Below, in pieces: positions 5,915 to 24,911 of a stretch of DNA of 32,000 nucleotides (position 1 is its first letter; each line of letters starts with the position of its first letter). A program made the translations under genes and the position numbers. This DNA is from Ruminococcus albus 7 = DSM 20455. Lineage in GTDB: Bacteria; Bacillota; Clostridia; Oscillospirales; Ruminococcaceae. Below the pieces are notes generated by a model. The model was given only the letters and a program-made list of their open reading frames with translations, had not been told where the DNA came from and made no database searches. The DNA lies in NCBI RefSeq assembly GCF_000179635.2, contig NC_014833.1, forward strand, positions 360,001 through 392,000, in the 5' to 3' direction.

Positions 5915-5923
5915 TTACCGGAA

Positions 5924-6003: not shown

Positions 6004-6062
6004 TTATCCCGAACTCGTTTTTGTGCAGTCCTATAAAAGTGATAAATTTATCACTTCCACTG

Positions 6063-6098: not shown

Positions 6099-6179
6099 TA
6101 AGGTGAGGAATATATCACCTTTGCCATTATCAAAGCTTTTATAATAACAAAAAGACAGAAGACATACGGAGGCATTATT

Positions 6180-6734: not shown

Positions 6735-6737
6735 CCT

Positions 6738-7262
6738 ATGATACAGAATAGAAATATCTCCCCGGATATACTTAGGGAAAACTACAAAAAGGACAAGCGC
6801 AAACCAATGTCATTGCGTGCTCATACCAAACTAAACGCTGTAACAGCGATGTTTGCGGGATCACTCTTCTTTTGGTCAATGGTATCTTCCGATGTGATAA
6901 ATGGTAAGGAAAACCCTGCAGACATCGCGATATTCATAATCCTGGGATTGGGTATGTTCATAAGCGGCTTCATCTGGTGCATGAATCTCACTTCATACAA
7001 ATTGGAACCCGATGACGAAATGTCGGAACAATTGCGGGGCAAAGCTAACGGAATGGCTTTCATTGTATGGTTTCCTTTGGCGCTGTCTGTGTTTTCTCTG
7101 CTGGAACATTTCCACCCGGGAGCAACTTCAGCAATCATGAAAATTTCAAATACTAATTCCTATATGCTGTTGATAAGCGGTATACTCACATATGATTCCA
7201 TAAGGCATTTCCTATTCCTTATGATGGACAAGGATGATAAGTCCTCGGAAAAGGAGGAATGA
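6738..7262 (+). CDS. Membrane protein (about 4 TM), paralogue B of the tandem pair
   Basis: 174-aa ORF starting 3 nt after paralogue A, with the same conserved boxes ([13 protein letters not shown]; [17 protein letters not shown]; C-terminal [11 protein letters not shown]). Confidence 0.7.
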
Positions 7263-7263
7263 T

Positions 7264-7467
7264 ATGCCCGAACTGAAAACACGACTAAAGGAACTCAGGG
7301 CTTCGAGAGATATGAAGCAGGGCGACCTCGCCGAACTGGTGGGTGTCAGGAGAGAAACTATCATCAGGCTTGAAAAAGGACAGTACAATCCCTCTCTGAA
7401 GCTGGCGATGGACATAGCCGCAGTGTTCGGCGTATCGGTGGAAGAAATATTCAGCTTTGAGGATTAA
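7264..7467 (+). CDS. Small XRE-family helix-turn-helix transcriptional regulator (YozG-like size class)
   Basis: [63 protein letters not shown] is a canonical HTH_3/XRE fold signature. The ATG at 7264 is preceded by aaggagg, and the upstream in-frame extension to 7234 overlaps the previous gene. Confidence 0.85.
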
Positions 7468-7523
7468 GGGCGAAAGACTAACTATCAAAAGTCAACCCCT
7501 AAAAATGAAGATTAACAAAAATT

Positions 7524-8699
7524 TCAAACAACAGGCTGATATGGCGAATGAGACTTTTCAAGAGCAAAAATGAGTCTGACGAGTTTCTTGACAGCGTGAG
7601 ATAATGCAACATTGTAATGCTTGCCCTCGGCTCGCTTCTTGGCGAGATAATCTTTGAATGTCTTGTCCCAGGTGCAGACGAATTTGGCAGCGTTGTAGAG
7701 AGCATAGCGAAGATACTTTGAGCCGCGCTTTTCCATCTTGGCATAACAATTCGTCAGCTGTCCCGATTGGTATGTAGAGGGCGACATTCCCGCAAATGCA
7801 AGTACTTTGTCGGGTGTTGCGAAGTTTGAAAAGTCACCGACCTCTGCGAGGATCATAGCGACAGTTGAATAGCTGAGACCGGGAACGGTCAGAAGTGTAG
7901 TGTCGGTTGCATCGACCAGCTTCTTTATCTCGGTTTCTATCTCATCTATCTGCTCGGTCAGGTCAGCAATGAGCTTTATGGTGTGCCTGAGTTCCAGCGA
8001 CTTTGCAGGCATTACAGAGCCGACAGAGCGTCTTGCGGCACCTCTGATCTGAATAGCTTTGTCCTTGCCGTAGTGACCTTTGGAAGTCTCTGAAAGCAGA
8101 TTGGCAAGCCTTGTAAGGTGAGCATTTGCGATATGCTGCGCTGAAGGAAACTCGCTCAAAAGAGTATAGACAGACTTCATGTGCAGCGAAGGCACGAGCG
8201 CTTCAAGTTCGGGAAAGAGAATAGTCACAAGCCTTGATACGGAGGTCTTGAGCTTTGCACGCTCGGAAACCTTGTCAAATCTGTATCTGGTCATTGACTT
8301 TAGCTCTTCGCTCTGATATAATGTATTTGTGTAGGGCTTTAGGTCTACGCAAGACATTAGCATAGAAGCAATCACGCGCGCATCTGCCTTGTCTGTCTTC
8401 GTTTTACGAAGTGTAAGGCTTTTTCGGTAAAGATTAGTGTGCAAAGGGTTCAGAACGTAGGTTGGCAGGCCGTTGTTCAACAGAAATCCCAACAGATTGT
8501 AGCTGTAATGTCCCGTAGCCTCGAGTCCTACTTTTATTATGTCAAAATTTTCGGTAACGGACTTGATGTTATCAAGCAGGATATTAAAGCCGTCAAGAGT
8601 GTTTGGGATAGTGAACACATCAAAGAGTACTGTACCTTCAGAATCAACAATAAAGCAGTCATGCTTGTCCTTTGCCACATCAATACCAACAACGATCAT
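7524..8699 (-). CDS. IS110-family transposase/recombinase (DEDD RuvC-like N-domain plus Tnp C-domain)
   Basis: 391 aa. The N-terminus MIVVGIDVAKDKHDCFIVDSEG and the C-terminal LLTVPGLSYSTVAMILAEVGDFSNFATPDKVLAFAGMSPSTYQSGQ are hallmark IS110/IS116/IS902 motifs. The ORF is full length and uninterrupted. Confidence 0.95.
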   Translation of the reverse strand: MIVVGIDVAKDKHDCFIVDSEGTVLFDVFTIPNTLDGFNILLDNIKSVTENFDIIKVGLEATGHYSYNLLGFLLNNGLPTYVLNPLHTNLYRKSLTLRKTKTDKADARVIASMLMSCVDLKPYTNTLYQSEELKSMTRYRFDKVSERAKLKTSVSRLVTILFPELEALVPSLHMKSVYTLLSEFPSAQHIANAHLTRLANLLSETSKGHYGKDKAIQIRGAARRSVGSVMPAKSLELRHTIKLIADLTEQIDEIETEIKKLVDATDTTLLTVPGLSYSTVAMILAEVGDFSNFATPDKVLAFAGMSPSTYQSGQLTNCYAKMEKRGSKYLRYALYNAAKFVCTWDKTFKDYLAKKRAEGKHYNVALSHAVKKLVRLIFALEKSHSPYQPVV

Positions 8700-8885
8700 A
8701 ATGATACCTCCAAAAATTATTGATGCTGTTTAGATCCACAGAGACTCTACGCTAATGTAACCTCGTTCTAAATAAACCGTCGGGCGGTATCTAACTGATC
8801 AACAAATTGCATAGAGACTGCGGTCGGAGCCTTTCGTAAACCGTCATACGGTAGGAAGATCAAACCAATCCACAGCATCTAAACA
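8700..8885 (-). ncRNA. Candidate IS110 bridge RNA / structured left-end non-coding region
   Basis: ~190-nt non-coding segment immediately upstream of the recombinase. It holds two stem-loops with identical stems (AAACCGTC-ggg-CGGTA at 8774-8789; AAACCGTC-ata-CGGTA at 8838-8853). It also has repeated ATCCACAG (8734-8741, 8868-8875) and complementary TGTTTAGAT/ATCTAAACA (8727-8735 / 8877-8885). The ncRNA assignment rests on published IS110 biology, not on a covariance model. Confidence 0.4.
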
Positions 8886-8953
8886 ATATTATACCATAGT
8901 TCTTGGAGAGGAACTCTAAAAACTACTACTTTTATTATACGAGGAAGATAACG

Positions 8954-9835
8954 ATGGAAGAAACAATGATACAGGAAAAAGGCAGTACACCTGTAACCGC
9001 AGGTGCTGTATTCAGGACCGCAGGCATAGTGATCGGTTCGGCGGCAAGCTTTTTGGTATCCTCTCTGATAGGCGGCATAATATGTCAAAAAGCAGGAATA
9101 TCGGGGTATGCGGCACAGTTCACAACAGGTCTGGTGTCGTTGGCGTTTTATATAGTCATACTTATATTGCTGAAGAAGAAATGTGTGCTCACCACAAAGG
9201 GCAACGGCTTTTTCGGCGGACTGCTTACAGGGCTTTTTATGGTATATTCCAGCGTTGTGGCGCTGGCGAGCGAGCTGTTCGTATCGACTGAGGGCAAAAC
9301 GGCAAAGATAGTAATGCCTTCGGAGCTGCATTTCGGGTCTGAACAGGTGTGGTGCATACTGGCTCTGTTTGTAGCCGCAGGTATCTGCGAGGAACTGCTT
9401 TTCAGAGGCATTATATTCAATGTCTTACGTGATCTTTTCGGCAGGAGCACCGTAAAAGGCACTGTCACAGCAGTGTTCGTTTCGGGCATCCTTTTCGGTC
9501 TTTATCATTTTCTTAACCTGACCGCAGGCATAGGTCTTGATGCTGTACTTCCACAGGTAGTGTCCACCGCAGGACTCGGAATATTCCTCTGTGCGGTATA
9601 TGCAAGGTGGGGAAATATATGGATAACGGTCTTCCTTCACGCACTTATGGATATATGCGTGGTACTTCCCGGAAGTATGAAGAACAATGAAAATATAGTC
9701 GAATCCATAAGCAGCAATATGTCTGACCCAAGAAAGTACATAGGTTTCTTTATCTATGCCGCACTTGCCATATACCTGCTGAGAAAAGACAAAAGACCGC
9801 AGATGTTCACATACAGCGTCAGCGATGACCAATAA
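8954..9835 (+). CDS. CPBP-family intramembrane glutamic endopeptidase (CAAX protease/Abi family)
   Basis: Polytopic ORF with the three family motifs EELLFRG (ICEELLFRGIIFN), F-x3-H (GLYHFLN) and H-x3-D (FLHALMD). The likely start is ATG 8954, after gaggaag; the track ORF opens at 8903. Confidence 0.88.
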   Translation: MEETMIQEKGSTPVTAGAVFRTAGIVIGSAASFLVSSLIGGIICQKAGISGYAAQFTTGLVSLAFYIVILILLKKKCVLTTKGNGFFGGLLTGLFMVYSSVVALASELFVSTEGKTAKIVMPSELHFGSEQVWCILALFVAAGICEELLFRGIIFNVLRDLFGRSTVKGTVTAVFVSGILFGLYHFLNLTAGIGLDAVLPQVVSTAGLGIFLCAVYARWGNIWITVFLHALMDICVVLPGSMKNNENIVESISSNMSDPRKYIGFFIYAALAIYLLRKDKRPQMFTYSVSDDQ

Positions 9836-9998: not shown

Positions 9999-10841
9999 AT
10001 GCGAGAGATCAATGTCAATGAAGTAGAAGACCTTATAAGAGAACTTTGTATCAAGGCGAACCTTTATCTGCCCGAGGATATGGAGCAGTGCATAAAGGCA
10101 GGTGCTGAAAAGGAATGTTCACCCGTGGGCAAAAACGTGTTTGATGATATCATAGACAATATCAATGTTGCCCGCAATGAGACCATACCGATATGCCAGG
10201 ATACAGGCATGGCTGTAATATTCATGGAGGTAGGTCAGGACGTTCACTTCGTGGGCGGCTCACTTAACGATGCCATAAACAAAGGCGTATCCCGCGGCTA
10301 TATCGACGGCAGACTTCGCTGTTCGATAGTCAGTGACCCTCTTGACAGAGTAAATACAGGCGACAACACACCACCCGTGGTACACCTTAAAATAGTTGAC
10401 GGCGATAAGGTCAATATCATGGTAGCCCCCAAGGGATTCGGCAGTGAGAATATGTCACAGCTGAAGATGATGACACCTTCCGTAACCCGTGAGGAGATAG
10501 TTGACTGGGTAGTTGGCGTATGCGCGAAAGCAGGTTCAAACCCATGTCCCCCGATAGTTATAGGCGTAGGCATTGGCGGCGATTTCGAGAAGTGCGCTTA
10601 TCTTGCCAAGAAAGCCCTTTGCAGACCTGTCAGCGAGAGAAACCCGAAGAAGCTGTATGCTGATCTTGAAGCTGAGATACTGGAGAAGATCAATAAGCTT
10701 GGTATAGGACCCCAGGGCTTTGGCGGCACTCAGACCTGCCTCGCAGTAAATATCGAGGAAGCCCCCACCCATATCGCAGGACTTCCCGTATCGGTAAATG
10801 TGGGCTGTCACGTAACAAGACACGCACACGGCACTATATAA
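9999..10841 (+). CDS. Class-I (Fe-S) fumarate hydratase / tartrate dehydratase, alpha (N-terminal) subunit
   Basis: 280-aa ORF with the typical alpha-subunit pattern (IPICQDTGMAVIFMEVGQDV; PPVVHLKIVDGDKV; MVAPKGFGSENMS; GGTQTCLAVNIE...HIAGLPVSVNVGCH). RBS aggagg upstream. Confidence 0.88.
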   Translation: MREINVNEVEDLIRELCIKANLYLPEDMEQCIKAGAEKECSPVGKNVFDDIIDNINVARNETIPICQDTGMAVIFMEVGQDVHFVGGSLNDAINKGVSRGYIDGRLRCSIVSDPLDRVNTGDNTPPVVHLKIVDGDKVNIMVAPKGFGSENMSQLKMMTPSVTREEIVDWVVGVCAKAGSNPCPPIVIGVGIGGDFEKCAYLAKKALCRPVSERNPKKLYADLEAEILEKINKLGIGPQGFGGTQTCLAVNIEEAPTHIAGLPVSVNVGCHVTRHAHGTI

Positions 10842-10871: not shown

Positions 10872-10906
10872 AGCAGCCTCACCATAGGTGTGAGGCTGCT
10901 TTTTTG
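10872..10906 (+). terminator. Rho-independent terminator after the fumarate hydratase alpha gene
   Basis: AGCAGCCTCAC-cataggt-GTGAGGCTGCT followed by TTTTT. Confidence 0.85.
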
Positions 10907-11042: not shown

Positions 11043-11071
11043 TTGACAACGGCGCATGACAGTGATATAAT
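11043..11071 (+). promoter_or_regulatory. Consensus extended -10 sigma-A promoter (TTGACA-17-TGaTATAAT) of the giant-protein operon
   Basis: ttgaca 11043-11048, an exact 17-nt spacer, TG at 11063-11064, tataat 11066-11071. It lies about 75 nt upstream of the first start codon. Confidence 0.7.
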
Positions 11072-11147: not shown

Positions 11148-12305
11148 ATGAATGGTACAAATATGAAATATCCAATAGGCGAATTGGCTGAGTCTGCTTC
11201 TGCAGCTGTCCTGACGGCAGATGACCAGCGTTCTGAGAAAAAACAAGAACGCAACAGATCGATTATAAAGCTGTGTGCCATTGGCACGCTGATACTGATA
11301 GTGATCATCTTTTCTTCTATCGCGTGGTTTACTATGAATAGGGAAGTGGGGACCTCAGGGATGGGGGTGAAGGTGGCTCCTGCTCCGTTTGAACTTGAGG
11401 TCCGTGGCACAGACATTGAAAACGAAGACGATTTTTCAAAAGCTGATGATGAATATGATGATGGCGTGGATTTGGAAGAGCTAGATGCATATCAGACTGC
11501 CGGACAATATGGCAAGATAATCTGGAGAAAAACAGGCACCTCAGCTGACGATGGTCACTATCCTGATGGTTTATCACCTAATTCGCATGGCAAACTCACA
11601 TTTTGGGTTGTTCCAAACAGCACAGGGACACTTGATATAGAATTCAAATTCAAGGTCAGATGTTTTATCGGAACATATACTCCTGCAGCAACAGAAGATG
11701 CAGACCCTTCTTTAAATAATCTGTTTGAAGTAAACGAGAGCATGGAGGTTACAGCGGAAAACGGATTGAAAGATGCGGCAGATCTTGCTAAGAAAAAAGA
11801 TGCATTAAAATATATACAAAGCCACATCTTATTCTTCTCTGATTTTGACGGCACAAACTATTCGGGTTTTCTTGGAACAGGTCGGTCGATTAGATTCGGT
11901 GACTGTATAAATCCTTCAGCAGAGCCAAAAGCAAAGTATAATGCAGGAAATGCTGTGACTGTCACAGAGGGACAAAAATATCAGGTGACTATCTATTGGA
12001 AGTGGGCAAATACACTTGAGCAGATGATATTTGACAGCAATTCCCAATATAGAGACGATCCTTTGTTTGCAACATCAAACACAACGGATCGAAATGCAAT
12101 ATACACATATTTGAAAGACACCACTAATAACTCGGCTTTTTCCGGGGCATCAGACATTGAATCGCTTTTGACAACAATTCAAGGTGGAACAGATATTTCC
12201 ACAGCACTTGCAACGCTTACGACCGCATATGATAATGCCGATCAGATAATAGGTAATAATCTGGATTACATTTTGATTGAGATGATTGCAGAAACTGCAT
12301 CATAA
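11148..12305 (+). CDS. Secreted or anchored protein 1 of the giant-protein operon: N-terminal helix ending S-I-A|W-F, TasA/camelysin-like beta-rich body (hypothetical)
   Basis: The ORF opens at GTG 11139, but ATG 11148 lies 8 nt after AGGAGG (11134-11139). A ~40-aa polar N-tail is followed by the TM LCAIGTLILIVIIFSSIAWF. Later GLSPNSHGKLTFWVVPNSTGTLDIEFKF and YQVTIYWKW strands resemble TasA-family beta-sandwich signatures. Confidence 0.75.
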   Translation: MNGTNMKYPIGELAESASAAVLTADDQRSEKKQERNRSIIKLCAIGTLILIVIIFSSIAWFTMNREVGTSGMGVKVAPAPFELEVRGTDIENEDDFSKADDEYDDGVDLEELDAYQTAGQYGKIIWRKTGTSADDGHYPDGLSPNSHGKLTFWVVPNSTGTLDIEFKFKVRCFIGTYTPAATEDADPSLNNLFEVNESMEVTAENGLKDAADLAKKKDALKYIQSHILFFSDFDGTNYSGFLGTGRSIRFGDCINPSAEPKAKYNAGNAVTVTEGQKYQVTIYWKWANTLEQMIFDSNSQYRDDPLFATSNTTDRNAIYTYLKDTTNNSAFSGASDIESLLTTIQGGTDISTALATLTTAYDNADQIIGNNLDYILIEMIAETAS

Positions 12306-12328
12306 TCATTAAAGGAGGAGGTGCTATT

Positions 12329-13180
12329 ATGAGCAAGGTTTTTAACAAGATAAAAAACTTGAAACTCAAAGAGAAAATACAGCTTATTATGGCACTTCTT
12401 TTAACGTTAGCAATAATAGTGTCAATTCCGGTATACGCATGGTTTAATCATCAAAGACAAATTGCAGAGCTTCAAAGGATTAAAACACCGGACTTGTTAT
12501 ATATCAGCGCTGCATATGCTGAAGATGTAAAGTACTTTCAAATACCGTCCATAGATGTCGCTGATGAAAATAACACTAAGCATCGGCAGGTGTTTCCTTT
12601 TGCTGTAGCAGGTGAATATGTTCCTGAGTTTACTCTTCAGCTTGCTCACACAACAAACATTCCATTCACATATAAAATATACGAGGCGGAATACTATGAT
12701 ACCGAGTCTGCCGCTAGAACAGCGATAAATACTAAAAATCAGAGTATTGCTGAGGAAGCTGATAAACTCTCATATGAATATGATGCAGTAAAGTACGATG
12801 TTAAAGCAAAATGGACGATGCTGGATGAGTACACATTATCTCAGCGAACATTAAACGCAGGTGATACTCTCTATTTGGTTAAAGGGAATCAGGTTTCCGG
12901 AAGCTATTTGAACAGTACAACTTCAGGAAACCGATTAATTGCAAGCAATAAATACCATCCGGAAACATATAAGGATGGGGACAGTACTTATGGTCAGGTA
13001 CAAACATATGCTGAGCCGCTGTATTGGCAAAGCAGAAAAATATCAAGCGTCCCGAATCCTTCTGGATGGGGAGGAAATCCATTTTTCAAAACTTTTGTCA
13101 TAGAAATATCCTGGGATCCGTCTGAGGTGCAGAATGATAAAGAGACGGATATGATTTATATTTCCGCTTACAGGGAATAG
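12329..13180 (+). CDS. Secreted or anchored protein 2 of the giant-protein operon: signal-like helix ending V-Y-A|W-F (hypothetical)
   Basis: RBS aaaggaggagg lies 6-8 nt before the ATG at 12329. N-terminus is MSKVFNKIKNLKLKEKIQLIMALLLTLAIIVSIPVYAWFNHQ. 23-nt gap from the upstream gene. Confidence 0.75.
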   Translation: MSKVFNKIKNLKLKEKIQLIMALLLTLAIIVSIPVYAWFNHQRQIAELQRIKTPDLLYISAAYAEDVKYFQIPSIDVADENNTKHRQVFPFAVAGEYVPEFTLQLAHTTNIPFTYKIYEAEYYDTESAARTAINTKNQSIAEEADKLSYEYDAVKYDVKAKWTMLDEYTLSQRTLNAGDTLYLVKGNQVSGSYLNSTTSGNRLIASNKYHPETYKDGDSTYGQVQTYAEPLYWQSRKISSVPNPSGWGGNPFFKTFVIEISWDPSEVQNDKETDMIYISAYRE

Positions 13181-13219
13181 GCACTATTATCAATAATCAA
13201 AGAAAGGAGCAATGGCGCT

Positions 13220-14317
13220 GTGAAAAAGTCAATCCGGGCTAAGAAGTTTATAAAAAAACACTTAATCACAATATGGTTAGTTATAGCTGCTATTGCTTTC
13301 TGTGGGATTCTCGCTTATGCAAAGTTTAGTGATGGACAGAACTATACCAAGAGGGTTGTTTCAACAGGAACTAATGATAAGGTTTTATTTACTTCGAATT
13401 TGCTCAATACTTCAAATTCCGGACATCCGAAGTCTGTAACAAAAGGTTTTGCTGCTGATAGCTACTATGATATAAATATTTATAATTATGATAAGAATAA
13501 GGTATCAGCGTATTATCCTGGTACAATTAATTATACCTTAAGTGCTATGCTTGTTAAGCCTGATGCTAGTAGTACAGTCTATGATACTACAGTCACGGCA
13601 GACCTTAATGCATTAAAAGATGTTTTGATTGAAACACACGTCGATAATACAGACCCTGATAATCCGGTTACTACATATACTTATCACAAGATATACATAT
13701 ATCGACTGATTGACGGAACACCGGAAGATACGCCCATCGTAACGCTTGGCGCAATAGATCAAGATACAATGACCGCATCGTATGATTTAACGGGAGAACA
13801 GCTGGTGCCGGGAACATCTGGAAGTGCGGTTGAAAGCTACAGGGTGATTTTGCCTAAAGAAGTTATTGATTCAGATGTTCGAGTTAAGATCACAGCTCAA
13901 CCGAACGGACACAGTGATCTTCCTTCATCGATAGGCGGAGTGTTTTATATTCAGTCTCAGAACATAGTTATTACAACAGGATGGAAAGGCGAATTTGTTG
14001 ATAGCCGAACAAAAGCCCCGAGCGAATATGATGCATTTAATTATAGAATATCCGGAGCAGGAACGGCTAATAAGGTACTGAAGTGGAATAGTACTTATCT
14101 TCAGCCCAATAAGCAGGAGATAGCCGACCTTTTCGGTGACGGCTCGTTCTCAGCATCAACAAATCAAGAAACACACAGTTTTCCTTTAAAACCTGATGTT
14201 TATACTTATGATATCCAGTTTTATGTTAAGGATGCTGCAGCTAGAGAATATATCGATGGTTTGACATGGGAACAGCTGATAGCAGCTAATCTTGTCACCT
14301 TGGAAGATCCGCAATGA
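13220..14317 (+). CDS. Secreted or anchored protein 3 of the giant-protein operon: signal-like helix ending A-Y-A|K-F-S-D (SipW-class-like) (hypothetical)
   Basis: GTG start at 13220, 10 nt after aaaggag. N-terminus is MKKSIRAKKFIKKHLITIWLVIAAIAFCGILAYAKFSDGQ. 39-nt gap from the upstream gene. Confidence 0.72.
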   Translation: MKKSIRAKKFIKKHLITIWLVIAAIAFCGILAYAKFSDGQNYTKRVVSTGTNDKVLFTSNLLNTSNSGHPKSVTKGFAADSYYDINIYNYDKNKVSAYYPGTINYTLSAMLVKPDASSTVYDTTVTADLNALKDVLIETHVDNTDPDNPVTTYTYHKIYIYRLIDGTPEDTPIVTLGAIDQDTMTASYDLTGEQLVPGTSGSAVESYRVILPKEVIDSDVRVKITAQPNGHSDLPSSIGGVFYIQSQNIVITTGWKGEFVDSRTKAPSEYDAFNYRISGAGTANKVLKWNSTYLQPNKQEIADLFGDGSFSASTNQETHSFPLKPDVYTYDIQFYVKDAAAREYIDGLTWEQLIAANLVTLEDPQ

Positions 14318-14355
14318 TTTTCGGATTGCTTTGTTGGTAAAATGGAGTGATATAA

Positions 14356-17300
14356 ATGAAAAAACGTTTTAGAAAAAACAAAATTAATAATATAAGAAAA
14401 CGTATCATAAGCTCAGTGATAGTAGTTGCAATGCTTGTGAGTGACTGTCCTATGTCAGAACTTTCCAGAATTATTGGAAAAAAAGTGTCCTCGCCGTTTT
14501 CTCTTGAGGCTTCTGCTGCTGTAACATACGATAGGAGCGAATACACCAAGCATTACATAAATGAAGGGGTTGATACCGGTTACATACTCATCGAGTCATG
14601 GGATGATCTTGTTTGGTATTCTCAGTCGTATCACAATTATTCTCTTGGAACCGTATATACTACATCTGTAGAACACGAAAAAGATGTTCTGTTTATTAAT
14701 TTTGGTGCGAGTCAGGGAAATAACTACAACCTTAACGGAAAGGGCTATGTGCCTATCGGTAATGATTTAAAGCCATTTGAAGGAAGAGTAGTGTTTTCCA
14801 ACTCTTCTGCTGCTGATACATTTAATGTTCCTGAAGCGCTTTTTGGTACCATTTCTGAAACGGTTTCTATAAAAAATCAGGCTGAAACCGCCGTAAAGCA
14901 AATAAAGCTTACACGCACTGGCACAGGAAGCGGTGACGTATTATTTGCAAGAAAGGTAAAATCTGATGATGATAGCACCACTTGTGCGGAGTGGGACATA
15001 ATATTTGACAAGTTCGATAATTCTTCAGCTATTTCATATGCCGGATTGATAGGTGAGATTGAGGCTGGTGCAAATGTTCAGATTACTTATGAGAACAATT
15101 CCATTTTGACAAAATCAAATCTTGAAGCAAATGCAACATCTTCCGATACAGATGGTAAGCCGGTAGATGCCGGTGCCATTTGTGGAAAAATGGGTGCAGG
15201 GGCATCCCTGACTGCGACTTATTCCGGCACAAATACAGATTATAACATTACATCAGCTAATGGAAACGCAGGAGGCCTTGTTGGTTCAATGGAGGTTGGA
15301 TCTTCTCTGACAGTGACAACTTCTAATCTTCAGGGAGCTTCTGCTTGGGTATCTGCATCAAATGGTTATGCAGGTGGTATAGTCGGAAAAAATGACGGCG
15401 GTACGGTGACCATCACCCCATCATCCGGAACAACCTATACTGTTAGTCAGATAATACATGGAAAAGATGGCACAGGCGGATTATTTGGGTACTATGCACC
15501 ACCATCATTAGCTACGGCAGAACTTGATATTAGCAATTATTCAGTAAATTGCAAACTTGAGCAGGCAGTCTCGGAAACCGGCATCGGCGTTGCAGGCGGA
15601 ATAATAGGTGTTATTGAAAACGTTCCCGCAGACCCCACAGGAAGAGTAGGGGGCAGTTTAACAATTATAGGTAAGTCTGATGGTACTACTGTTGTAACCT
15701 CCACTCATGTTTCGCAAATAGATACCGTAACAGGTAAAGATACCGGTTATAAGGCTGAAGCATATGGTGGGCTTATCGGTTCTTATAAAGCAAGTGATAC
15801 CAGTTACTCTTTGAACATTAAGGATGTATCTACTACACCTACAAATACTCTTGCTGCTTCTGTTTATGGCGGAGGTATCGGTAAAATCATCGATGCATCG
15901 TATGTAAAGTTTGAAACCTTTAAGCTCAATAGTGCAGCAGGTGATCGTTCAGGAACATTTGGCGGGTTAGCGGCAGACAGTCCAAATGGATATATTTATG
16001 CAGATGGTTCAACAACAAATTCAAATTGTACAGGTATTGTAATTGGCAGTTCAGTGATTGACGGATTTACAGGTGGCGGTCTTGTAGGAAACCTTGGTGA
16101 CGGAGTTCTTGGAATAAAGGGCATGATTAATGTTTCAAATGCAAAACCTACTGCTGACGATACTAACGGTCATCTTGTCGGAACACGTGACAACGCTCTT
16201 ATCTATGCTGATGGAACTCCAAGCTACACCATGAGTAACATAGAAGTCGATAATGTTGGCTCTTGGGGCGATATTGTTGTTATTGACGGTACTAAACTGA
16301 AAAAGAATGCAACGTTAGATAATCTTAATGTGTTCAGTGAATCCAATCATATAATTACGATTGATAGTGTAACTCCTACAGCGATCGCAAATGCGGCGGA
16401 TTATGCAAAGGCATCACTTCTCTACCAAATTGAAGTTACAAAGAATGATTTTATTGCCAATGCTTCGAGTTTAACATCGAGTACTTCTGCACCATTAAAC
16501 CTTACATTTGGAGCAGATATCAATCTGACTGGAACTGGTCTTCGCGGAATAACCAGAGACAATGGAACCGACAGGGTTTCATATTCAGGTACGATCTCCG
16601 GCGGACATACGATTACTCTGGATATAAAGAATGTTGGCGGAAGCGACAGACCTGTCTATAGAAAGAAATACATCGGAATGCTTGGAATAGCAGATACCGT
16701 AACGATCAATAACACCACCTTTAGTGGTACTATTCTAAGCAAAAATGAAAGAACCACTGATAAAGACACCATATGTTATTTGGGGTCAGCTGCCGCACAG
16801 ATTAAAACAAGCTTTATCGCATCAAATTGCAATACAGCAAGTGGACTTAGTATAACTATGACTGGTTCAAAAGATGTTATTTCTGGCAGGCTGATAGGTG
16901 AAGCTGAGAGTGCTATTGGTACAATAACAATTTCTGGTAGCACATATGATGGAAATATTACCGGAAATAACAAAACGACTGTAGGTGGTACTATCGGCAA
17001 AATTGCCGGTGCTGCAAGCGGAGCTGTTTGGTCATTTAATGGTATCACTCTAAGAGGCAACGTAAAAGGAATACAACATGTCGGAGGCCTTATTTCTGAT
17101 GTTGAAGGTAGCGGTAATGCTACGATAAAACTTGGCAATTCTTCAAGTGTAGTTGCTGATAATAATCTTCATATTGAAGGAAACAGCAGTGACTCAATGG
17201 GAGGCCTGCTCGGTTATAGCTGGTCAAAAGCAGATGTGGAAGTCACAGATGTTGTAGCTTCCGGTCATCCTACAGTAGAACAAAAAAGCAGTGGTGGAGC

Positions 17301-20300
17301 TGCTGGCTTAGTTTATAGCGCTACAGGTCATTGGACTATTACAAAGCTGTACCTCGGCTATACTGACGCAGAAGAAAACTCTCATGCGATCAAAATGCTT
17401 ACCGGTACGGCTGGTTCTGTGGGCATGATCGTTAACAAAGGTAAAATAAGCAGTGACGGTATTTATCTCGAACTGCCTTCGGGATACGATTATAAACTTG
17501 CATATTATACTGCTGAAACAGAAGGCTCTGCTTTCAAATCTGGTGGTGTGTTTGATGAGATCTGCGCATACAGTGCTTCATCTAAAGATGCTATAATGAA
17601 CAACGGTCAGGGTATTGTTTCTATTAGCACGACCGGTCTGACAATGTCAACAACAGCGTCCGACAGCTTGAGTTATAAGAATCAGACTGTTCAGGGTAAA
17701 TATAAAAACGGAAATACAAGGTATTATTACAATTTGGATACTATTGATAAAGATAACACTCTATCTTCAACTGCTTATGCTAAGAAACTAATGAGATGGG
17801 GTGTACGTCAGTATGCCTGTGGAAATATCCAAAAGCATTTCCCCGATCCTTTCAGCAATAATACTATTCCTTCAGGAACATACAATATGCAGGGTTATAG
17901 CTGGTATCCAGTTACACCTCTTAACGCAATGACGGTAAACGGCACGTTTACTTTCTATAATAAGGAATTTGACGATTGCGAAAAAGTCAAGGGAAAGCAC
18001 GCAAATATTTCAGATGCTAGCAATAAAAACATCTGGTCACCGCTTGAGGCTGATCAGCATTACATGATGCAGAACGGCTTGTTTTATGATGTAAATAAAA
18101 ATATAACAATTGATGCAATCACACTTGCGGGTACTATCGGTGCAGTTGACAGTACCTCCGGTACCGGTGCGCTTGTTTACGGAAATGTAAAAGGAACTTC
18201 AACAGCCGTTACAACTATAAGCAATTCCGGAACGATTTCTTTAGCAGGCATCAGAGTATGGAATTTGAGTACTTATCCGGACTATGCGCCGCTACTTATC
18301 AATAAAGCAAGCGATTATGTTACATTTGATATTAAAAATGTATCAACAACGGATGCATATAAGAGAACAACGACAGGTGAATCCCCTGTTACAACGACGA
18401 TAGATGCCGCAACAAGTCTTATTGGTAAAGCCGGAACACGTGATACAGTCACCACAGACAGCAGCGGTAACCAAATACCGATAAGTCAGGGAATTACCGT
18501 CAGTTTCTCTGCAATTAAGCTTGACGGTAGAAATGCTGAAGAAGTTTCTGCCTATGGTACTACACCTGATCGTTATAATACTACAAAATCAATATTTACA
18601 AGGGCAACGCTGCTTGAACAGTTAATTGGTTCAAACGGCATATATAACTATACATTTGATGAGGACTGGGGTACGGGAACTCCTCATAAAGTTACTTATG
18701 GTAAAGAAGTAGGTTATACAACACAGGAACAGTATCCTAATCAGGAATTGTGGTATAAAGACGAAAAAGCAACCGGAGGCAAATCGAGATATACTCATCC
18801 TGACGCTGCGCCGCTCGATTCAGGTTCCACACGGTATACAGGTTTTGACTCATTCCGTCCTTATGTAGCAAGTGTAAGCACAAAAGCTGATATAGATGAT
18901 AAGACAGGGTTTAAGTACCAGCTTATGGTCAACCATCAGCCTTCGGACAAGATAGCCGGGTGCGGTACTTATAACGATCCGTATATTATTACAAGCGCAT
19001 CAGATCTAGTTACCATTTCAAAGTTTATAAACAGTAGTTCCAACCTTAATGGTACGATAAACTATGATGTTGATAAAGACGGATGGTGCGATTCTACAAC
19101 GGTAGGTGAGACAACGACTCTTTATACAGAGCATTTTGAATACACTCTCAATGGAACTTCAGCTGCTACCTGCTCAGGACAGTCTAATGTTACAGCTGAT
19201 GATATGAGAAAGTATCTTGCAAGCGCATATTATCAGATTCGTCTGTCAGGAGCTAATCAGCTTGTACTTACTTCTTCGTCAGGTTTCGTTGGCCTTGGCA
19301 CATCGGATATTCCCTTTTCCGGTGTTATTGACGGCGGACAGAATTCAACAACTACAATCGTAAATGAAACCCAGTACCCGCTGATTAACTACAGCGGCGG
19401 TTGTGTTGTAAGAAATCTAATCGTAACAGTTAATGAAACAGTTACCCTTGACGACGCGACAGATTCATATGATTATATTACGGGAGGAAAATCACACGGC
19501 GCTTATGGTGCCATAATTGCTGTCGTTGAAGGCGGCGATAATATAATCGATAATACACAGGTTACATTTGGCACATCTGTTATAAATGCAAAGGGTAAGA
19601 AAGCACAGTTCCAGCCGATCGGTGGTTATGTTGGTGTTGTTGTTAATGGCGGTGTTATATTCAGAAATATGACATCAGGCAACATTAGCGGTATTTCCAG
19701 TTCAAATGTATCAGCAGTACAAGGAGGCAACTGGCCTCAGATTAATTATTCTGACGGGAAAGCTATAGATACCACAGCCAAGCTGTCTGAATATACCGTT
19801 AATATGACTCAGCCAAATAATTTGCTTTGGCTCTATGTTAATCCTATTATCGGCAGGGTTATTAACGGTTATGCCGTGAACATTGCCTCCGCTTATCATC
19901 CTGCTTATTCAGACTGCATTATGAATAACGGTAATAAGAGTTATTCGATAACGGATATTTCTTTGTCAGGTGGTTCGTTAACAATTTCCGGATCAAATCT
20001 GACTGTTCCAAATGGTCAGGCGCTGTTCTTGACTTCCGTGATCGTAAACAGCGGCATGGGCGCAAATAATACGCTTGGCTATGCAGATACATATACTAAA
20101 CGTACTGCTGATTATAACAATGTGGGATCTAATGCTGTGGCATATACTTTATGTTCGGATTTCAATACCTATGCAAAGAATGATACAACAACTGGTACTG
20201 CGTATATTATTGATAATTTTGCAACCGATGGCAGTACGCTCGGAAGTGGAGGACCATGGAATATTACGCTAACATCGAATGGATCGTTTGTTCTTCCTGA

Positions 20301-23300
20301 TGGCTTCAGAGGTATTGGAAACTTTTATCAGAATGATACGAAGTATCTTCTGAATGTCAGCGATTTTAACGGTAATGGAGAAACTATAACTCAGAATACC
20401 TATTTCTATACATATGACGACGGTAGTGGTAAGTTTGATACAGTATATTATCCTAACACAGGTATTGAGGGGGCAGCGTCATATAGTAGTACAACAGACG
20501 CTGGAATAGGCTTATTTACCAGGCAGGTCCAAAACGGAGCAAATTATTATGATTTTAAACTGTCCGGAACACTTAAAAGCGACGTTATAAATCATAAAAC
20601 TGGTGTACACGTTGAATATACAGGAAATACTAAAACTGCTGGCTCTATAGTTGATGCTGGTAATTCTGATCTAAAACAAGTATTGTCAGCAGGAATGTTA
20701 TTTGGTAATTTTTCAGGAGCAGGAGCTAAAGGGGTTAGTAATTCTGCACCAACCTATATAACTAATGTTGCACTGGTAGATATTGATGTTAGCGCGGCCA
20801 AAATGGCAGGTGGAATGATTGGTATTGTACCTATTGGTGCTGCTAATACAGACGGTTTTACAAATATGGAGATAGAGGTTAATTCCAGCACTTATAATTC
20901 ATATGGCATAAAGGTTCATGGAGGACTAAGTTCAGCCGGTTTAATCGCAAGATATCAGCAAGGTATCTGTAATATTGATTTCCATGGGAACAGATTCGAT
21001 ATAAACGAAATTGTGAGCGACACAAAGTCAAATACAGATAACTATTATTATGGTGTCGGGGGTATTATAGGAACACTTAGAGCTGATAGAAATACCCCAG
21101 CAAGCCCTGTTACAATAAAAAATGTTACGTTGGGTGATAAAAATGCTACAAAAGCTATTGAGGTTAAATGTTCAGAGAGCGGATGCGGCATAAATGCCGG
21201 TGGATTGATCGGCTCACTTAACAGAGCTTCGGCGACAATGGACAATTGTCATGTGTTCAATGTTTCTGTATCTTCCAATGGGTCTTCAACTCATGTTGGC
21301 GGCGCTTTTGGCCATATGCGTACACAATGTAACGTTACTGTAATAGATTCCTCAATAGAATCAAATGACACCGCAAAAGCAAGTATAACAGGTAATGGTT
21401 ATGTTGGCGGCTTCTTGGGCAACTCTCCGATAACCGGTGATCAGGCTCGAACATTTATCGTGGAAAACAGTAGGATCAAAGGGTATACGATATCCGGAAA
21501 TATTTCCGGCGGTATTGTAGGTGATAGAGCTGCTATTAACGCTACCTATTATCTTACCGTTAACAATTTTTCAATTGAAAAATGTACTATCAAAGGTGAT
21601 ACATATGCCGGTGGTTTGGTTGGCTATTTACATCATCCGTTGAGCGGCTATAACATTTTGGCAAAGGATTTAACTTTTGAACCTCATACTGAAGGCGGCA
21701 CTATTGCCAATCTTGGTTATTTAGTAGCGAAAAATGATAGTGTAATCAAATTGGTAGGTTTTTCTCGTCAGGCTGATTCTTCATCAACGATGGTTCAGGC
21801 TATGACCGGCGGAAGCAACGCTACAAATTATGGCAATGGCGGATATGTTATCTTTGCTGATTATATGGGTACGGCATCGTATAACAACAGCACCTTTACT
21901 CCGGGGGAAAACTCGAAGAATGCTTTTTCAGGCATGACAAGCAGTACAAATGTAACGCCTTATGCTCCTTATGTATCGACGAGCCCGTTTGCAAATATTG
22001 CAAATTATAACTCTGTCATGCAGTATCTGCTAAGTGATGGCGCAAGCCCGCTGACGAGTGCAACATTCGGTCGTTCTACACAAGCTTTTGCCAAGATTTA
22101 TGATGATATTGCCAATAACAATAATGGCTACTATGAGATACCAAAAGCATATCTTGATACGGAGGATGAGTATAAGTCGTATACTACAAAAATCTCATCA
22201 TTTAAAACTGAAATGGGCGACAAGCTTGCGAATGGAATAGATTTTCCTGTGCTTGTGCTTGATAAAATTAACAAAGGTGAGATGACTGATTTTATAAATC
22301 ACTATATAAATCTACTTACAAATACGTCAAGCACATATAATTTTGCAACAAGTGCTAATAGTACAATATACGATGTTGATATTTACAAGGTTATATTTAA
22401 TGCTGCCGGTGATGAGATAAGCACTATTACAGATGTAGACACCTGTCTTAAAGTTAATGCTGGAACAAATGCAACTGCCCAGTTCTATATTGAATCCGAT
22501 GATACGGATACAGCTGCCTCGACAGCACAGTTTACTCTGATGGATGTTAAGTTTATGAATCCTTCGGCTACGGGAACGGTTGCATATCATCTATATATTC
22601 CCTGTTATGTCAGAAAGCTTCTTGAATACGATTTTGATATCCATATAGATTCAGGAACGACCTATGACATAAACAAATATACTCAGCTCACTGAAAATAG
22701 TCTTGTTGAGAATATCGGAACACCTATAACTCTTGAATTTGCATTTACCTACCAGCGTAATGCTCAGGAATGGACGGAAGCGGTCAACGGCGGAGACTCA
22801 CTTCTCTCTAATTATCCTAAGAGTTTACTATTTGACAACTCAACTACTGTAACATCTGGATCAAAGCCTCAATTCTCGTCCACAACCAAAATGGTTCTTA
22901 TTGATACGCAGAATTCTTCAAAGGCATATTATCTTGATGGACTCAATAATACTTCGTTCACTCCATCAGGGGATTACAGAACATTGAACTTCAGTAGTTT
23001 TGCTGATCTTAATAGTACTGGATTTACGCCTGTAAGTTTCAATGATATGTTAAATGTTTCTGTAACGCCAAATTCATCCGGAACGCTTGTGCAGGATAAT
23101 AACAATGCTATTGTTAAGGACACTACAACGGGAACAAAATATAGACTGGCGACTGATGCAGATACCGCTCTTACAAAATACACTGCAACTGTCACATTCA
23201 AAAACGAAGGAGATACAGCTCTTTCCGAACATTATTTCCTGACAATATATACTCCGTATTCAACTGCTGATGTTGTTTACCATTATGTTGTTCAGGCAAA

Positions 23301-24615
23301 TAAAGATCTCGGAACCGATCCATATCCTTCAAGAATTACGTCAGAATCAGAAAGCAACGTTGTTCATTTGTATACAGGCTATATTTATAACAACCATGTG
23401 TATATCGATAGTCTCAAGGTTGGTGGAGTAGAAAACTATGAGGAAATAACAGCAGAGAACAACTCCATCGAAGCGAGTATTCATGCAACTATAGGACTTA
23501 CTTCTTCTGGTGAAGAGAACATCAGATCTACCTTATCGGCTACCACGCCGCCTGACATTTTCCAGAGTTTTCTGATAAAACTCAACAAGGATGGAAATGT
23601 TGGACTTGCTGCGGCAAGTTCGGTTACAGTAGAGAATTATAGAATTGGTAATAAGCTTGTGACTGACTCTACCATGAACCCGTCGTGGACTAGTGCTGAA
23701 TACACGGATATGCGCATACCTAATTACATTGAAATGAGAAATGGTGTCCCTCTTGCACGATCTCTTTCTGAGATTCCTGCTAATGGAACGCTTAACGTTT
23801 CAGCGAAAGCGACCATTACCTTTGATAATGACAATGGTGATATCACTGCTCAGTTCTTCCCGCAAACGGCTGAAAAATACACAACGCTCATTGCTTATTC
23901 AAATATTGCATCAAGTAGCGAGAATACGGCTTCGAGTAATGTTTCAGCGTATGCTGATACCACGGTCGGAGGAACCAAACCTCAATATTATACAAAGATT
24001 GAAGAAAAGGCAATACTGAATTATGATGCGCTTGATGTTCCGGCAGACGGAAGCAATTTGCCGCAGCTTGGAATTAATGCCAATGATCCAAATGACATTA
24101 AGAAGCTACCTGCACCTATAAAAACGGTAGCATCATATAATGTTGAAAATTGTCAGTCAGCATGGCAAGTGGCCAATTTCGTCAAAATTGAAATTGAATT
24201 GAAATCAAAAAATGATGGATATACTGCACCTTTAGGTATTTTTGATTACATCCAAGAAAGCACGTTTACAATATTTGATGGTGAGATTGATTCCGATGAT
24301 ATAATAACAACTGGGACTACTGCGAACAAATTGATTTATATTATTGACAAGACTGATTTGGAACAGTTTTATAATGATAAGGTATATCGTATTCCAATTG
24401 ATTTCAATGTTTACTCTGGAAGCGGAGCAAGTAATAATTTTGAATCGGTAAATAAGCAGTATTCTAATTATGGTATATTCATAAAGGTGTCAATGCTTCA
24501 AGCGGCGGATTCCGAATCAGCGGTAAGTGGAACAGAACCGGAGTATAATAACAACAATTTTGTTAAGTATACAAATGCTAGGATATACCTTGAAAAGGTG
24601 AATCCAAACAAATAG
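14356..24615 (+). CDS. Giant (3,419 aa) secreted GLUG-repeat, predicted beta-helical surface/fibre protein without a recognisable wall anchor
   Basis: 10,260 nt with no in-frame stop in AT-rich DNA, and a GGAG RBS before the ATG. N-terminus is basic (MKKRFRKNKINNIRKR) followed by a hydrophobic helix. About 24 GG[LIV][IVF]G-type motifs counted by eye, for example NAGGLVGS, YAGGIVGK, VAGGIIGV, AYGGLIGS, NAGGLIGS, YAGGLVGY. A 'GCGTYNDPYIITSASDLVTISKFI' module head lies at ~nt 18955. Rich in T/S/N/G. Confidence 0.9.
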   Translation: MKKRFRKNKINNIRKRIISSVIVVAMLVSDCPMSELSRIIGKKVSSPFSLEASAAVTYDRSEYTKHYINEGVDTGYILIESWDDLVWYSQSYHNYSLGTVYTTSVEHEKDVLFINFGASQGNNYNLNGKGYVPIGNDLKPFEGRVVFSNSSAADTFNVPEALFGTISETVSIKNQAETAVKQIKLTRTGTGSGDVLFARKVKSDDDSTTCAEWDIIFDKFDNSSAISYAGLIGEIEAGANVQITYENNSILTKSNLEANATSSDTDGKPVDAGAICGKMGAGASLTATYSGTNTDYNITSANGNAGGLVGSMEVGSSLTVTTSNLQGASAWVSASNGYAGGIVGKNDGGTVTITPSSGTTYTVSQIIHGKDGTGGLFGYYAPPSLATAELDISNYSVNCKLEQAVSETGIGVAGGIIGVIENVPADPTGRVGGSLTIIGKSDGTTVVTSTHVSQIDTVTGKDTGYKAEAYGGLIGSYKASDTSYSLNIKDVSTTPTNTLAASVYGGGIGKIIDASYVKFETFKLNSAAGDRSGTFGGLAADSPNGYIYADGSTTNSNCTGIVIGSSVIDGFTGGGLVGNLGDGVLGIKGMINVSNAKPTADDTNGHLVGTRDNALIYADGTPSYTMSNIEVDNVGSWGDIVVIDGTKLKKNATLDNLNVFSESNHIITIDSVTPTAIANAADYAKASLLYQIEVTKNDFIANASSLTSSTSAPLNLTFGADINLTGTGLRGITRDNGTDRVSYSGTISGGHTITLDIKNVGGSDRPVYRKKYIGMLGIADTVTINNTTFSGTILSKNERTTDKDTICYLGSAAAQIKTSFIASNCNTASGLSITMTGSKDVISGRLIGEAESAIGTITISGSTYDGNITGNNKTTVGGTIGKIAGAASGAVWSFNGITLRGNVKGIQHVGGLISDVEGSGNATIKLGNSSSVVADNNLHIEGNSSDSMGGLLGYSWSKADVEVTDVVASGHPTVEQKSSGGAAGLVYSATGHWTITKLYLGYTDAEENSHAIKMLTGTAGSVGMIVNKGKISSDGIYLELPSGYDYKLAYYTAETEGSAFKSGGVFDEICAYSASSKDAIMNNGQGIVSISTTGLTMSTTASDSLSYKNQTVQGKYKNGNTRYYYNLDTIDKDNTLSSTAYAKKLMRWGVRQYACGNIQKHFPDPFSNNTIPSGTYNMQGYSWYPVTPLNAMTVNGTFTFYNKEFDDCEKVKGKHANISDASNKNIWSPLEADQHYMMQNGLFYDVNKNITIDAITLAGTIGAVDSTSGTGALVYGNVKGTSTAVTTISNSGTISLAGIRVWNLSTYPDYAPLLINKASDYVTFDIKNVSTTDAYKRTTTGESPVTTTIDAATSLIGKAGTRDTVTTDSSGNQIPISQGITVSFSAIKLDGRNAEEVSAYGTTPDRYNTTKSIFTRATLLEQLIGSNGIYNYTFDEDWGTGTPHKVTYGKEVGYTTQEQYPNQELWYKDEKATGGKSRYTHPDAAPLDSGSTRYTGFDSFRPYVASVSTKADIDDKTGFKYQLMVNHQPSDKIAGCGTYNDPYIITSASDLVTISKFINSSSNLNGTINYDVDKDGWCDSTTVGETTTLYTEHFEYTLNGTSAATCSGQSNVTADDMRKYLASAYYQIRLSGANQLVLTSSSGFVGLGTSDIPFSGVIDGGQNSTTTIVNETQYPLINYSGGCVVRNLIVTVNETVTLDDATDSYDYITGGKSHGAYGAIIAVVEGGDNIIDNTQVTFGTSVINAKGKKAQFQPIGGYVGVVVNGGVIFRNMTSGNISGISSSNVSAVQGGNWPQINYSDGKAIDTTAKLSEYTVNMTQPNNLLWLYVNPIIGRVINGYAVNIASAYHPAYSDCIMNNGNKSYSITDISLSGGSLTISGSNLTVPNGQALFLTSVIVNSGMGANNTLGYADTYTKRTADYNNVGSNAVAYTLCSDFNTYAKNDTTTGTAYIIDNFATDGSTLGSGGPWNITLTSNGSFVLPDGFRGIGNFYQNDTKYLLNVSDFNGNGETITQNTYFYTYDDGSGKFDTVYYPNTGIEGAASYSSTTDAGIGLFTRQVQNGANYYDFKLSGTLKSDVINHKTGVHVEYTGNTKTAGSIVDAGNSDLKQVLSAGMLFGNFSGAGAKGVSNSAPTYITNVALVDIDVSAAKMAGGMIGIVPIGAANTDGFTNMEIEVNSSTYNSYGIKVHGGLSSAGLIARYQQGICNIDFHGNRFDINEIVSDTKSNTDNYYYGVGGIIGTLRADRNTPASPVTIKNVTLGDKNATKAIEVKCSESGCGINAGGLIGSLNRASATMDNCHVFNVSVSSNGSSTHVGGAFGHMRTQCNVTVIDSSIESNDTAKASITGNGYVGGFLGNSPITGDQARTFIVENSRIKGYTISGNISGGIVGDRAAINATYYLTVNNFSIEKCTIKGDTYAGGLVGYLHHPLSGYNILAKDLTFEPHTEGGTIANLGYLVAKNDSVIKLVGFSRQADSSSTMVQAMTGGSNATNYGNGGYVIFADYMGTASYNNSTFTPGENSKNAFSGMTSSTNVTPYAPYVSTSPFANIANYNSVMQYLLSDGASPLTSATFGRSTQAFAKIYDDIANNNNGYYEIPKAYLDTEDEYKSYTTKISSFKTEMGDKLANGIDFPVLVLDKINKGEMTDFINHYINLLTNTSSTYNFATSANSTIYDVDIYKVIFNAAGDEISTITDVDTCLKVNAGTNATAQFYIESDDTDTAASTAQFTLMDVKFMNPSATGTVAYHLYIPCYVRKLLEYDFDIHIDSGTTYDINKYTQLTENSLVENIGTPITLEFAFTYQRNAQEWTEAVNGGDSLLSNYPKSLLFDNSTTVTSGSKPQFSSTTKMVLIDTQNSSKAYYLDGLNNTSFTPSGDYRTLNFSSFADLNSTGFTPVSFNDMLNVSVTPNSSGTLVQDNNNAIVKDTTTGTKYRLATDADTALTKYTATVTFKNEGDTALSEHYFLTIYTPYSTADVVYHYVVQANKDLGTDPYPSRITSESESNVVHLYTGYIYNNHVYIDSLKVGGVENYEEITAENNSIEASIHATIGLTSSGEENIRSTLSATTPPDIFQSFLIKLNKDGNVGLAAASSVTVENYRIGNKLVTDSTMNPSWTSAEYTDMRIPNYIEMRNGVPLARSLSEIPANGTLNVSAKATITFDNDNGDITAQFFPQTAEKYTTLIAYSNIASSSENTASSNVSAYADTTVGGTKPQYYTKIEEKAILNYDALDVPADGSNLPQLGINANDPNDIKKLPAPIKTVASYNVENCQSAWQVANFVKIEIELKSKNDGYTAPLGIFDYIQESTFTIFDGEIDSDDIITTGTTANKLIYIIDKTDLEQFYNDKVYRIPIDFNVYSGSGASNNFESVNKQYSNYGIFIKVSMLQAADSESAVSGTEPEYNNNNFVKYTNARIYLEKVNPNK

Positions 24616-24911
24616 GAGTAACCTACACACCATTGTCCCCTAAAACCCAATCCATCCTCACAGGGCATACAGGGGATATAGGGTGTGTGGCGAGATAGGT
24701 AAAACTCCTGTCAAAAACTCAAAGCTTTGTCAAAGGATGACCCGCCTTTCCCCCAATCCCTTAAATTTTCCCCTGGCCTTAACCCGGCAAATCCAATGAA
24801 GTGGAGAGTATTAAGAAAGAAGCCGCAGGTTTATGTAGAAAAAGGTAAAGGTAAAGTGGTAGAAAACAAGTAATGAATATCACCGAGTATTAAAACAAAT
24901 TAATATTTCCT

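Follow-up and report, generated by a model that had tools for sequence, protein, structure and literature searches.

A conserved helix-end motif in three dissimilar proteins of Ruminococcus albus 7 as a putative SipW-type cleavage site

Within a window of 32,000 nucleotides from Ruminococcus albus 7 = DSM 20455 (contig NC_014833.1, positions 360,001 to 392,000; positions given without a locus name are those of this window, the whole stretch of DNA that was analysed), the list of open reading frames (ORFs) holds four co-oriented ORFs that together span 11148-24615. These are F1 (11148..12305, plus strand, 385 residues), F2 (12329..13180, plus strand, 283 residues), F3 (13220..14317, plus strand, 365 residues) and BIG (14356..24615, plus strand), which encodes a secreted protein of 3419 residues. 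We realized that F1, F2 and F3 share a short motif at the outer end of their N-terminal hydrophobic helices, and that this junction is conserved throughout each of three families; we lean towards the view that the three proteins are cleaved there by a SipW-type enzyme, at A↓W-F or A↓K-F (the arrow marks the putative cut), and are then assembled with BIG. The link to SipW-type peptidases appears well supported by the comparative context of orthologous loci. Scans of all four proteins matched no Pfam or NCBIfam model, PADLOC returned nothing for F1-F3, and searches of the literature on SipW and Ruminococcus, on giant surface proteins and on TasA in Oscillospiraceae found the module nowhere described.

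A junction motif conserved in three families

The preliminary description of this DNA had placed a related tetrapeptide at the helix end of each of the three proteins, and codon counting reproduced its positions exactly: I58-A59-W60-F61 in F1 (11319..11330, plus strand; I-A↓W-F), Y36-A37-W38-F39 in F2 (12434..12445, plus strand; Y-A↓W-F) and Y33-A34-K35-F36 in F3 (13316..13327, plus strand; Y-A↓K-F). Homology searches retrieved 92 relatives of F1, 607 of F2 and 25 of F3, the F2 family comprising ~557 clusters at 50% identity, without annotation. Among 57 aligned F1 sequences, whose columns average 28% identity, just 10 positions never vary, and W60 and F61 belong to these. The F2 alignment has an invariant W38, with P34, A37 and F39 each at 90% conservation or more; the F3 alignment reaches the same level (at least 90%) at A34 and has F or Y at position 36 in 26/26. 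What follows the junction is thus W-F in the F1 and F2 families and x-[Y/F] in that of F3.

The F2 profile was also used to collect 80 species-level loci, which served as the sample for all counts of module and neighbourhood given below. Junctions were located in these loci with a regular expression requiring [AGS][WFY][FLYW], so that the counts at the −1, +1 and +2 positions largely follow from it (for F1, A/G/S at −1 in 74/74, W/F at +1 in 74/74 and F/Y at +2 in 73/74; for F2, A/S at −1 in 80/80, W at +1 in 78/80 and F at +2 in 75/80), and for these positions the family alignments are the independent evidence. The counts further upstream are, like the alignments, independent of the expression: in F1 the −3 residue is T or S in 65/74, and in F2 it is V, T, A or S in most of the 80 loci, with P at −4 in 52/80. 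The small-x-A rule that had been proposed for the helix ends holds at family level, with a small −1 residue, a small or aliphatic −3 residue and an aromatic +2 residue conserved in all three families. This agrees with the pattern of SipW-cognate leaders, namely small −1, small or neutral −3, F/Y at +2 and a conserved mature N-terminus beyond, and the motif is alike whether or not a peptidase gene lies nearby.

That the proteins are otherwise dissimilar is true at the profile level also. Alignment of the family profiles with hhalign joined only the helix and the junction, at a probability of 58% over 27 columns for F1 against F2 and of 16.5% for F2 against F3. In addition, sequence-profile searches of the PDB with F1-F3 gave noise only, and the strong matches listed in a search of a representative library with the F2 profile were all members of its own family, with no link to known families.

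Architecture and predicted folds

F1 begins with a variable basic and acidic cytoplasmic tail (residues 1-41) that carries a conserved juxtamembrane R...LIK, followed by the hydrophobic helix, the junction region (residues 57-67, S-I-A↓W-F-T-M-N-R-E-V), a linker (residues 66-80) and a beta-sandwich. The unusual N-terminal tail of ~40 residues that the preliminary description pointed out is real; in homologues its length ranges from about 10 to more than 100 residues, and an n-region so free in length and sequence is as expected for a discarded leader. F2 and F3 have K-rich n-regions before their hydrophobic helices, the F2 helix leading into P-V-Y-A↓W-F-N-H-Q-R-Q-I-A-E-L-Q, and that of F3 into A-Y-A↓K-F-S-D, a linker (residues 38-56) and tandem Ig-like beta-sandwiches. 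The F3 linker is itself conserved, R45-V46 being invariant and K44 kept in at least 90%, and it holds most of an F..SN.L motif. Based on the K/R-rich n-regions the helices should be oriented N-in, which puts the motif on the outer face, i.e., at the extracytoplasmic helix end where type-I or SipW-type peptidases cut.

The AlphaFold2 model of F1 (mean predicted local distance difference test score, pLDDT, 89.8) has a helix over residues 14-65, a disordered segment over 66-80 and then a beta-sandwich with helices, and that of F3 (pLDDT 82.9) has helices over residues 2-37, a disordered segment over 38-56 and then tandem beta-sandwiches. As to the TasA-like fold suggested earlier, F1 has a predicted beta-sandwich and F3 predicted Ig-like domains, but the similarity to TasA itself is not significant. 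A Foldseek search with the F1 model gave no PDB match at E ≤ 0.001; its top match was the TasA fibre 8aur_A, a weak one (E = 0.01, probability 0.23, template modelling (TM) scores of 0.15/0.22). The F3 model gave generic tandem Ig-like adhesin and pilin matches only (FimH, FimA, CfaE and RbmA, with TM scores of ~0.2).

SipW-type peptidases and a McrBC-like block in related species

The window was said to hold no signal peptidase gene, and this is correct, as none of its ORFs was matched by a SipW profile whose seed was a peptidase encoded next to one of the modules. The situation is different in related species. Where 7 kb or more of DNA is available upstream of F1, SipW-type ORFs lie just upstream and on the same strand in 14 of 46 loci, and where 3-7 kb is available they do so in 4 of 11; taken together they are present, usually as two paralogues, in 18 of the 57 orthologous loci that reach 3 kb or more. 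These peptidases pass the NCBIfam model TIGR02228 (83 and 93 bits, against a cut-off of 51.85) and match the B. subtilis SipW model with E-values of 3e-32 and 8e-26.

The arrangement is best laid out in the locus of Huintestinicola butyrica (L058), where a single operon reads: an F1 paralogue, an EAL phosphodiesterase, a 261-residue membrane protein, SipW-type peptidase 1 (the 83-bit match), a membrane-anchored McrB-like ATPase, a DUF2357/McrC-like protein, SipW-type peptidase 2 (the 93-bit match), a 144-residue membrane protein and then F1, F2, F3 and BIG. The block of peptidase and McrBC-like genes occupies 3220-8680 of L058 and 1166-7276 (minus strand) of a second locus, L006, where a single fused protein combines the McrC-like part and the second peptidase. 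The McrB-like ATPase has an N-terminal membrane helix, a coiled coil, the Walker A sequence GISGTGKT and an N-N-D signature, and that of related loci matches the candidate family PDC-M26A in PADLOC; the McrC-like protein combines DUF2357 with an E/R-rich coiled coil. The two small membrane proteins of L058 (2405-3190 and 8246-8680) have helix ends AIAYA-VSYF and FVFAG-LYF, again small then aromatic, and may be further substrates or partners.

The association also holds when approached from the other side. A metagenome search with the McrC-like protein recovered 79 loci with the same block, and among the 35 of these that are at least 15 kb long F1-type genes were present in 27 and F2 in 19; among secreted proteins, only those carrying the junction motif are conserved partners of the peptidase block. 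The F1 paralogues adjacent to the peptidases have short classical signal peptides that end S-x-A-T-Y-A↓W-F-T-M-N-K-E-V, the same motif as in the window F1. Paralogues with such a signal peptide, ending A-T-Y-A↓W-F-T-M-N-K-E-V, form a second class of F1 (~330-430 residues), usually just upstream of F1, that was seen at L058 401-1414, L013 7352-8575, L080 7292-8497 and in many other loci; the R. albus window has none.

The block beside the orthologous modules fits CoCoPALM, judging by its genes, a clade of McrBC systems named by Bell et al., who deferred its analysis (PMC11090510); we found no follow-up paper in the literature.

A proposed processing route and its rivals

Based on these results we propose that the N-terminal helices of F1-F3 are leader peptides of a divergent SipW-cognate type. 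What we infer here, namely the cleavage itself, the peptidase responsible, a donor-strand assembly and the role of F1-F3 relative to BIG, would run as follows. The helix would insert N-in, and an archaeal/endoplasmic reticulum (ER)-type peptidase, i.e., one of the SipW type, would cut after the small residue, at S-I-A↓W-F, V-Y-A↓W-F and A-Y-A↓K-F. The conserved N-terminus so freed (W-F-T-M-N-R-E-V in F1 and its equivalents), joined by a flexible linker to the beta-sandwich or Ig-like body, would be an assembly element, possibly a donor strand as in TasA, and F1-F3 would assemble with BIG, or attach it, into a strain-variable structure on the cell surface. The peptidases of R. albus would have to be encoded elsewhere in its genome, while in many related species they belong to the same operon, inside the CoCoPALM-like block. 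We favour SipW-type cleavage because the motif lies at the outer helix end, the −1/−3 rule is kept in three families, the link to the peptidases is seen from both directions, and a conserved segment and linker follow the junction. By analogy the layout would be that of TasA, with a resemblance to sipW-bsaABC also.

A chance resemblance of one tetrapeptide among three membrane-helix ends might be suspected, as the motif is short and a small residue followed by an aromatic one is common at membrane interfaces. Such a motif would not be expected to be near-invariant over 74-80 orthologues per family in which the mean column identity is 28-39%; this refutes chance, which we regard as extremely improbable, and the motif is a feature shared by the three families. 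The main rival takes the helices to be uncleaved type-II signal anchors, F1-F3 forming a membrane base complex that holds the anchorless BIG, with A-W-F as an interfacial aromatic belt or as a helix-helix or partner-recognition motif in place of a cut site. Several observations weigh on this side, and against cleavage. The hydrophobic stretches are long (~18-21 residues) and, together with the 40-residue F1 tail and its R...LIK, also fit uncleaved signal anchors; the AlphaFold2 helices of F1 and F3 are continuous through the junction and run 1-5 residues beyond it. BIG, which has an ordinary Sec-type signal peptide and neither LPXTG nor a C-terminal helix in the window protein, needs something to hold it on the cell. 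No SipW gene was found in R. albus: none is in the window itself, none turned up in the 10 kb past either of its ends in related strains of the species, and a tblastn search of plasmids gave none; no peptidase adjoins the R. flavefaciens-type modules, and about two thirds of the loci have no cis peptidase within the DNA fetched.

The remaining points on that side concern known families. The relationship to TasA-class substrates proposed in the preliminary description was not upheld by the NCBIfam SipW-cognate model TIGR04088, which matched neither the three window proteins nor one homologue per family (reported at E ≤ 10, with a model cut-off of 19 bits and a TasA control at 38 bits); the BIG N-terminus was likewise unmatched at E ≤ 10. 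As two peptidase-adjacent F1 paralogues were missed by the model too, its failure is weak evidence, and TIGR04088 may simply not cover this leader variant. No Pfam or NCBIfam match to TasA, camelysin or BsaA (PF12389, NF046066, TIGR04090) was seen, and hhalign comparisons of F1, F2 and F3 with TasA were not significant (probability 0.04-1.3%). The best local alignments to TasA all fall at the junction and are in register for F2 and F3, the longest being that of F2 (78 residues, junction in register, again not significant), so that the family nearest TasA, if any, would be F2.

On the other hand, an anchor leaves unexplained why the −1 and −3 residues should be strictly small in three families with unrelated ectodomains, and why there should be a strong reciprocal linkage to two SipW-type peptidases; the same motif stands behind a short classical signal peptide in the peptidase-adjacent F1 paralogues, and the length of the F1 tail is unconstrained. 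For these reasons we judge the anchor explanation to be rather unlikely. The second rival is that the housekeeping type-I peptidase processes F1-F3, whose signal peptides would be of the ordinary Sec kind, that W-F is a functional mature N-terminus, and that the SipW-type genes serve other substrates. The AXA-like rule is indeed generic, most loci (that of R. albus included) are without a cis SipW gene, and the signal peptide of BIG, encoded in this operon too, is a plain one; however, conservation across the cut site is a hallmark of the substrates of dedicated peptidases, such as the TasA class, and not of general signal peptides, and the peptidase block has no conserved secreted partners other than those with this motif. 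We consider this explanation improbable, more so than that of the anchors. The proposal of SipW-type processing is supported in part, by motif conservation and the comparative link to SipW-type peptidases, while homology to TasA found no support. The predicted beta-sandwich or Ig-like ectodomains of F1 and F3 behind a disordered linker, the conserved junction and the SipW-type peptidases upstream of the module in other species are all in line with what the preliminary description proposed.

A further and more tentative suggestion, which we think possible but would not yet call probable, is that F1-F3 and BIG are the structural cargo of the CoCoPALM machinery, which would then be a surface-appendage system of a new kind in Gram-positive bacteria. 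Here the two peptidases, coupled to a membrane-tethered McrBC-like GTPase pair that is fused to a peptidase in some species, would cut at [A/G/S]↓W-F; the freed N-termini would link the three beta-sandwich subunits into a base or adaptor carrying a fibre of 3000-3700 residues, and the exposed part as a whole would be swapped as a cassette between strains.

The module, its giant protein and strain variation

Almost every one of the 80 species loci, drawn from Ruminococcus, other Oscillospiraceae, Lachnospiraceae, Eubacterium xylanophilum and further taxa, keeps the F1-F2-F3-BIG module. BIG is directly 3' of F3 in most loci; the order is permuted to F1-BIG-F2-F3 in a small number of loci of gut Ruminococcus type. 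The composition of BIG is rich in T, G, S and N, with 15 GG[LIVMFA][LIVFA]G repeats in two arrays, and the signal peptides of BIG proteins end in an AXA-like site and are without the W-F motif. In the gut Ruminococcus-type loci L001 and L003 (235-9974) BIG was called as two genes (839 and 2355 residues), and in L002 (234-9974), of the same type, as one (3246 residues); the split could be a frameshift, phase variation or an assembly error.

In R. albus 7 the module has a promoter-like site of sigma-70 type at 11043..11071 (plus strand; TTGACA, a 17-nt spacer and a TG-extended TATAAT, a 12/12 match), preceded by a strong terminator at 10872-10900. F1 starts at the ATG at 11148, which a ribosome-binding site (AGGAGG) precedes by 8 nt; a GTG at 11139 comes first among the in-frame start codons of the ORF but is no more than that.

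Comparison with other R. albus strains revealed a strain-variable cassette of 13.5 kb (11346..24890, plus strand). Their identity to the window is 96-99% as far as 11345 and again from ~24891, with a non-homologous allele in between. The left breakpoint falls at F1 codon 66, five residues past the junction, and in several proteins from the databases residues 1-64 match F1 exactly, after which identity drops to 36-39%. With the breakpoint just past the junction, the promoter and leader stay constant while the whole exposed part can be exchanged, which is what one would expect if diversifying selection acts on a surface structure. In locus L174 (493-2756) an F1 that is 75% identical to that of the window is directly preceded by two tyrosine-recombinase (Phage_integrase) genes, which may be relevant to cassette exchange.

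The window flanks contain a fumarate hydratase subunit gene, a CAAX-type protease gene, an IS110 transposase gene and an IS66 element. The fumarate hydratase gene (9999-10841, alpha-type subunit) is followed directly by the terminator and the module, as is also the case in strain locus L011, and no ORF for a partner subunit was noticed beside it. We weighed the CAAX/Rce1-type protease (8903-9835) as a candidate for the processing and discarded it, since its gene stands beside the module in R. albus loci only. The IS110-family element (7477-8941; transposase 7524-8699, minus strand) is an insertion relative to the related R. albus strain L011, and the IS66-family element (25008-28010, with three ORFs within 25116-27353), which lies ~400 bp past the BIG stop codon, is one relative to strain L012; in the latter case the flanking alignments overlap by ~10 bp, which could be a target-site duplication. 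In other species a gene for an EAL-domain protein, a phosphodiesterase of cyclic di-GMP (c-di-GMP), adjoins the module in 16 of the 80 loci, e.g., at L080 5154-6830 (minus strand), L039 3478-5160, L045 4626-6278 and L058 1551-2336. This hints at control of the module by c-di-GMP, as for biofilm or adhesion structures.

Significance

A module without Pfam or NCBIfam annotation is thus conserved, giant protein included, in many fibre-degrading and gut Clostridia, among them R. albus, R. flavefaciens, Ruminococcus-like gut lineages, Eubacterium xylanophilum and Lachnospiraceae. Should the junction indeed be a dedicated cut site, F1-F3 would define a second, divergent class of SipW-type leader that current models miss, they would be the first concrete substrates of the McrBC-linked signal peptidases of CoCoPALM, and the product would be a strain-variable surface structure likely to be relevant to adhesion, biofilm formation or the recognition of phage and host.

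Comparison with known systems

Type IV pilins likewise have an N-terminal hydrophobic helix before a beta-rich body and a strain-variable exposed part behind a constant N-terminus, and F2 shares with them a conserved helix proline. We nevertheless reject a type IV pilin or class III signal peptide, as there is no G↓F-x-x-x-E site and the conserved motif is at the outer and not the cytoplasmic helix end; neither a prepilin peptidase nor an assembly ATPase was found in the module. A sortase-built pilus or LPXTG surface protein was rejected also, the C-termini of F1, F2, F3 and BIG being without LPXTG. Archaeal bundling pili (AbpA) reportedly form donor-strand fibres like those of TasA, with processing of the signal-peptidase-I type followed by assembly through the new N-terminus; they have no sequence match and no significant fold match to F1-F3.

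Closer parallels are found in Gram-positive bacteria. In Bacillus subtilis, TasA and TapA are cleaved by SipW, and residues 28-38 at the mature start of TasA are the donor strand (PMC9674648). The likenesses to this tapA-sipW-tasA operon include a leader that ends small-x-A and is followed by x-F-[N/S/T], conservation past the cut site, several substrates per operon, a dedicated archaeal/ER-type peptidase in the operon (here, in related species) and a beta-sandwich body behind a flexible N-terminal segment. In contrast to TasA, F1-F3 have no TIGR04088, NF046066 or PF12389 match, have W at +1 (in F1 and F2) and are without the G-G-G-T c-region; they are also larger (283-385 residues), belong to three unrelated families and come with a partner of 3400 residues, and elsewhere with two peptidase paralogues and a McrBC-like pair in cis, with no peptidase in the R. 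albus window. In Clostridium perfringens, export of BsaA depends on the SipW of the sipW-bsaABC operon (PMC7395162). This too is a clostridial operon in which a SipW-type peptidase accompanies three secreted matrix proteins and is needed for the export of the polymerising subunit; however, F1-F3 have no TIGR04090 match, BsaA is ~23 kDa, and the bsa operon is without a giant protein or McrBC-like genes. As to CoCoPALM, the published account is without F1-F3, the junction motif or the giant protein, and none of the block genes by which it is recognised (McrB-like GTPase, coiled-coil McrC, signal peptidases) is present in the R. albus window; yet in about a quarter of the orthologous loci the module adjoins such genes, McrB-like GTPase, McrC-like and signal peptidase together.

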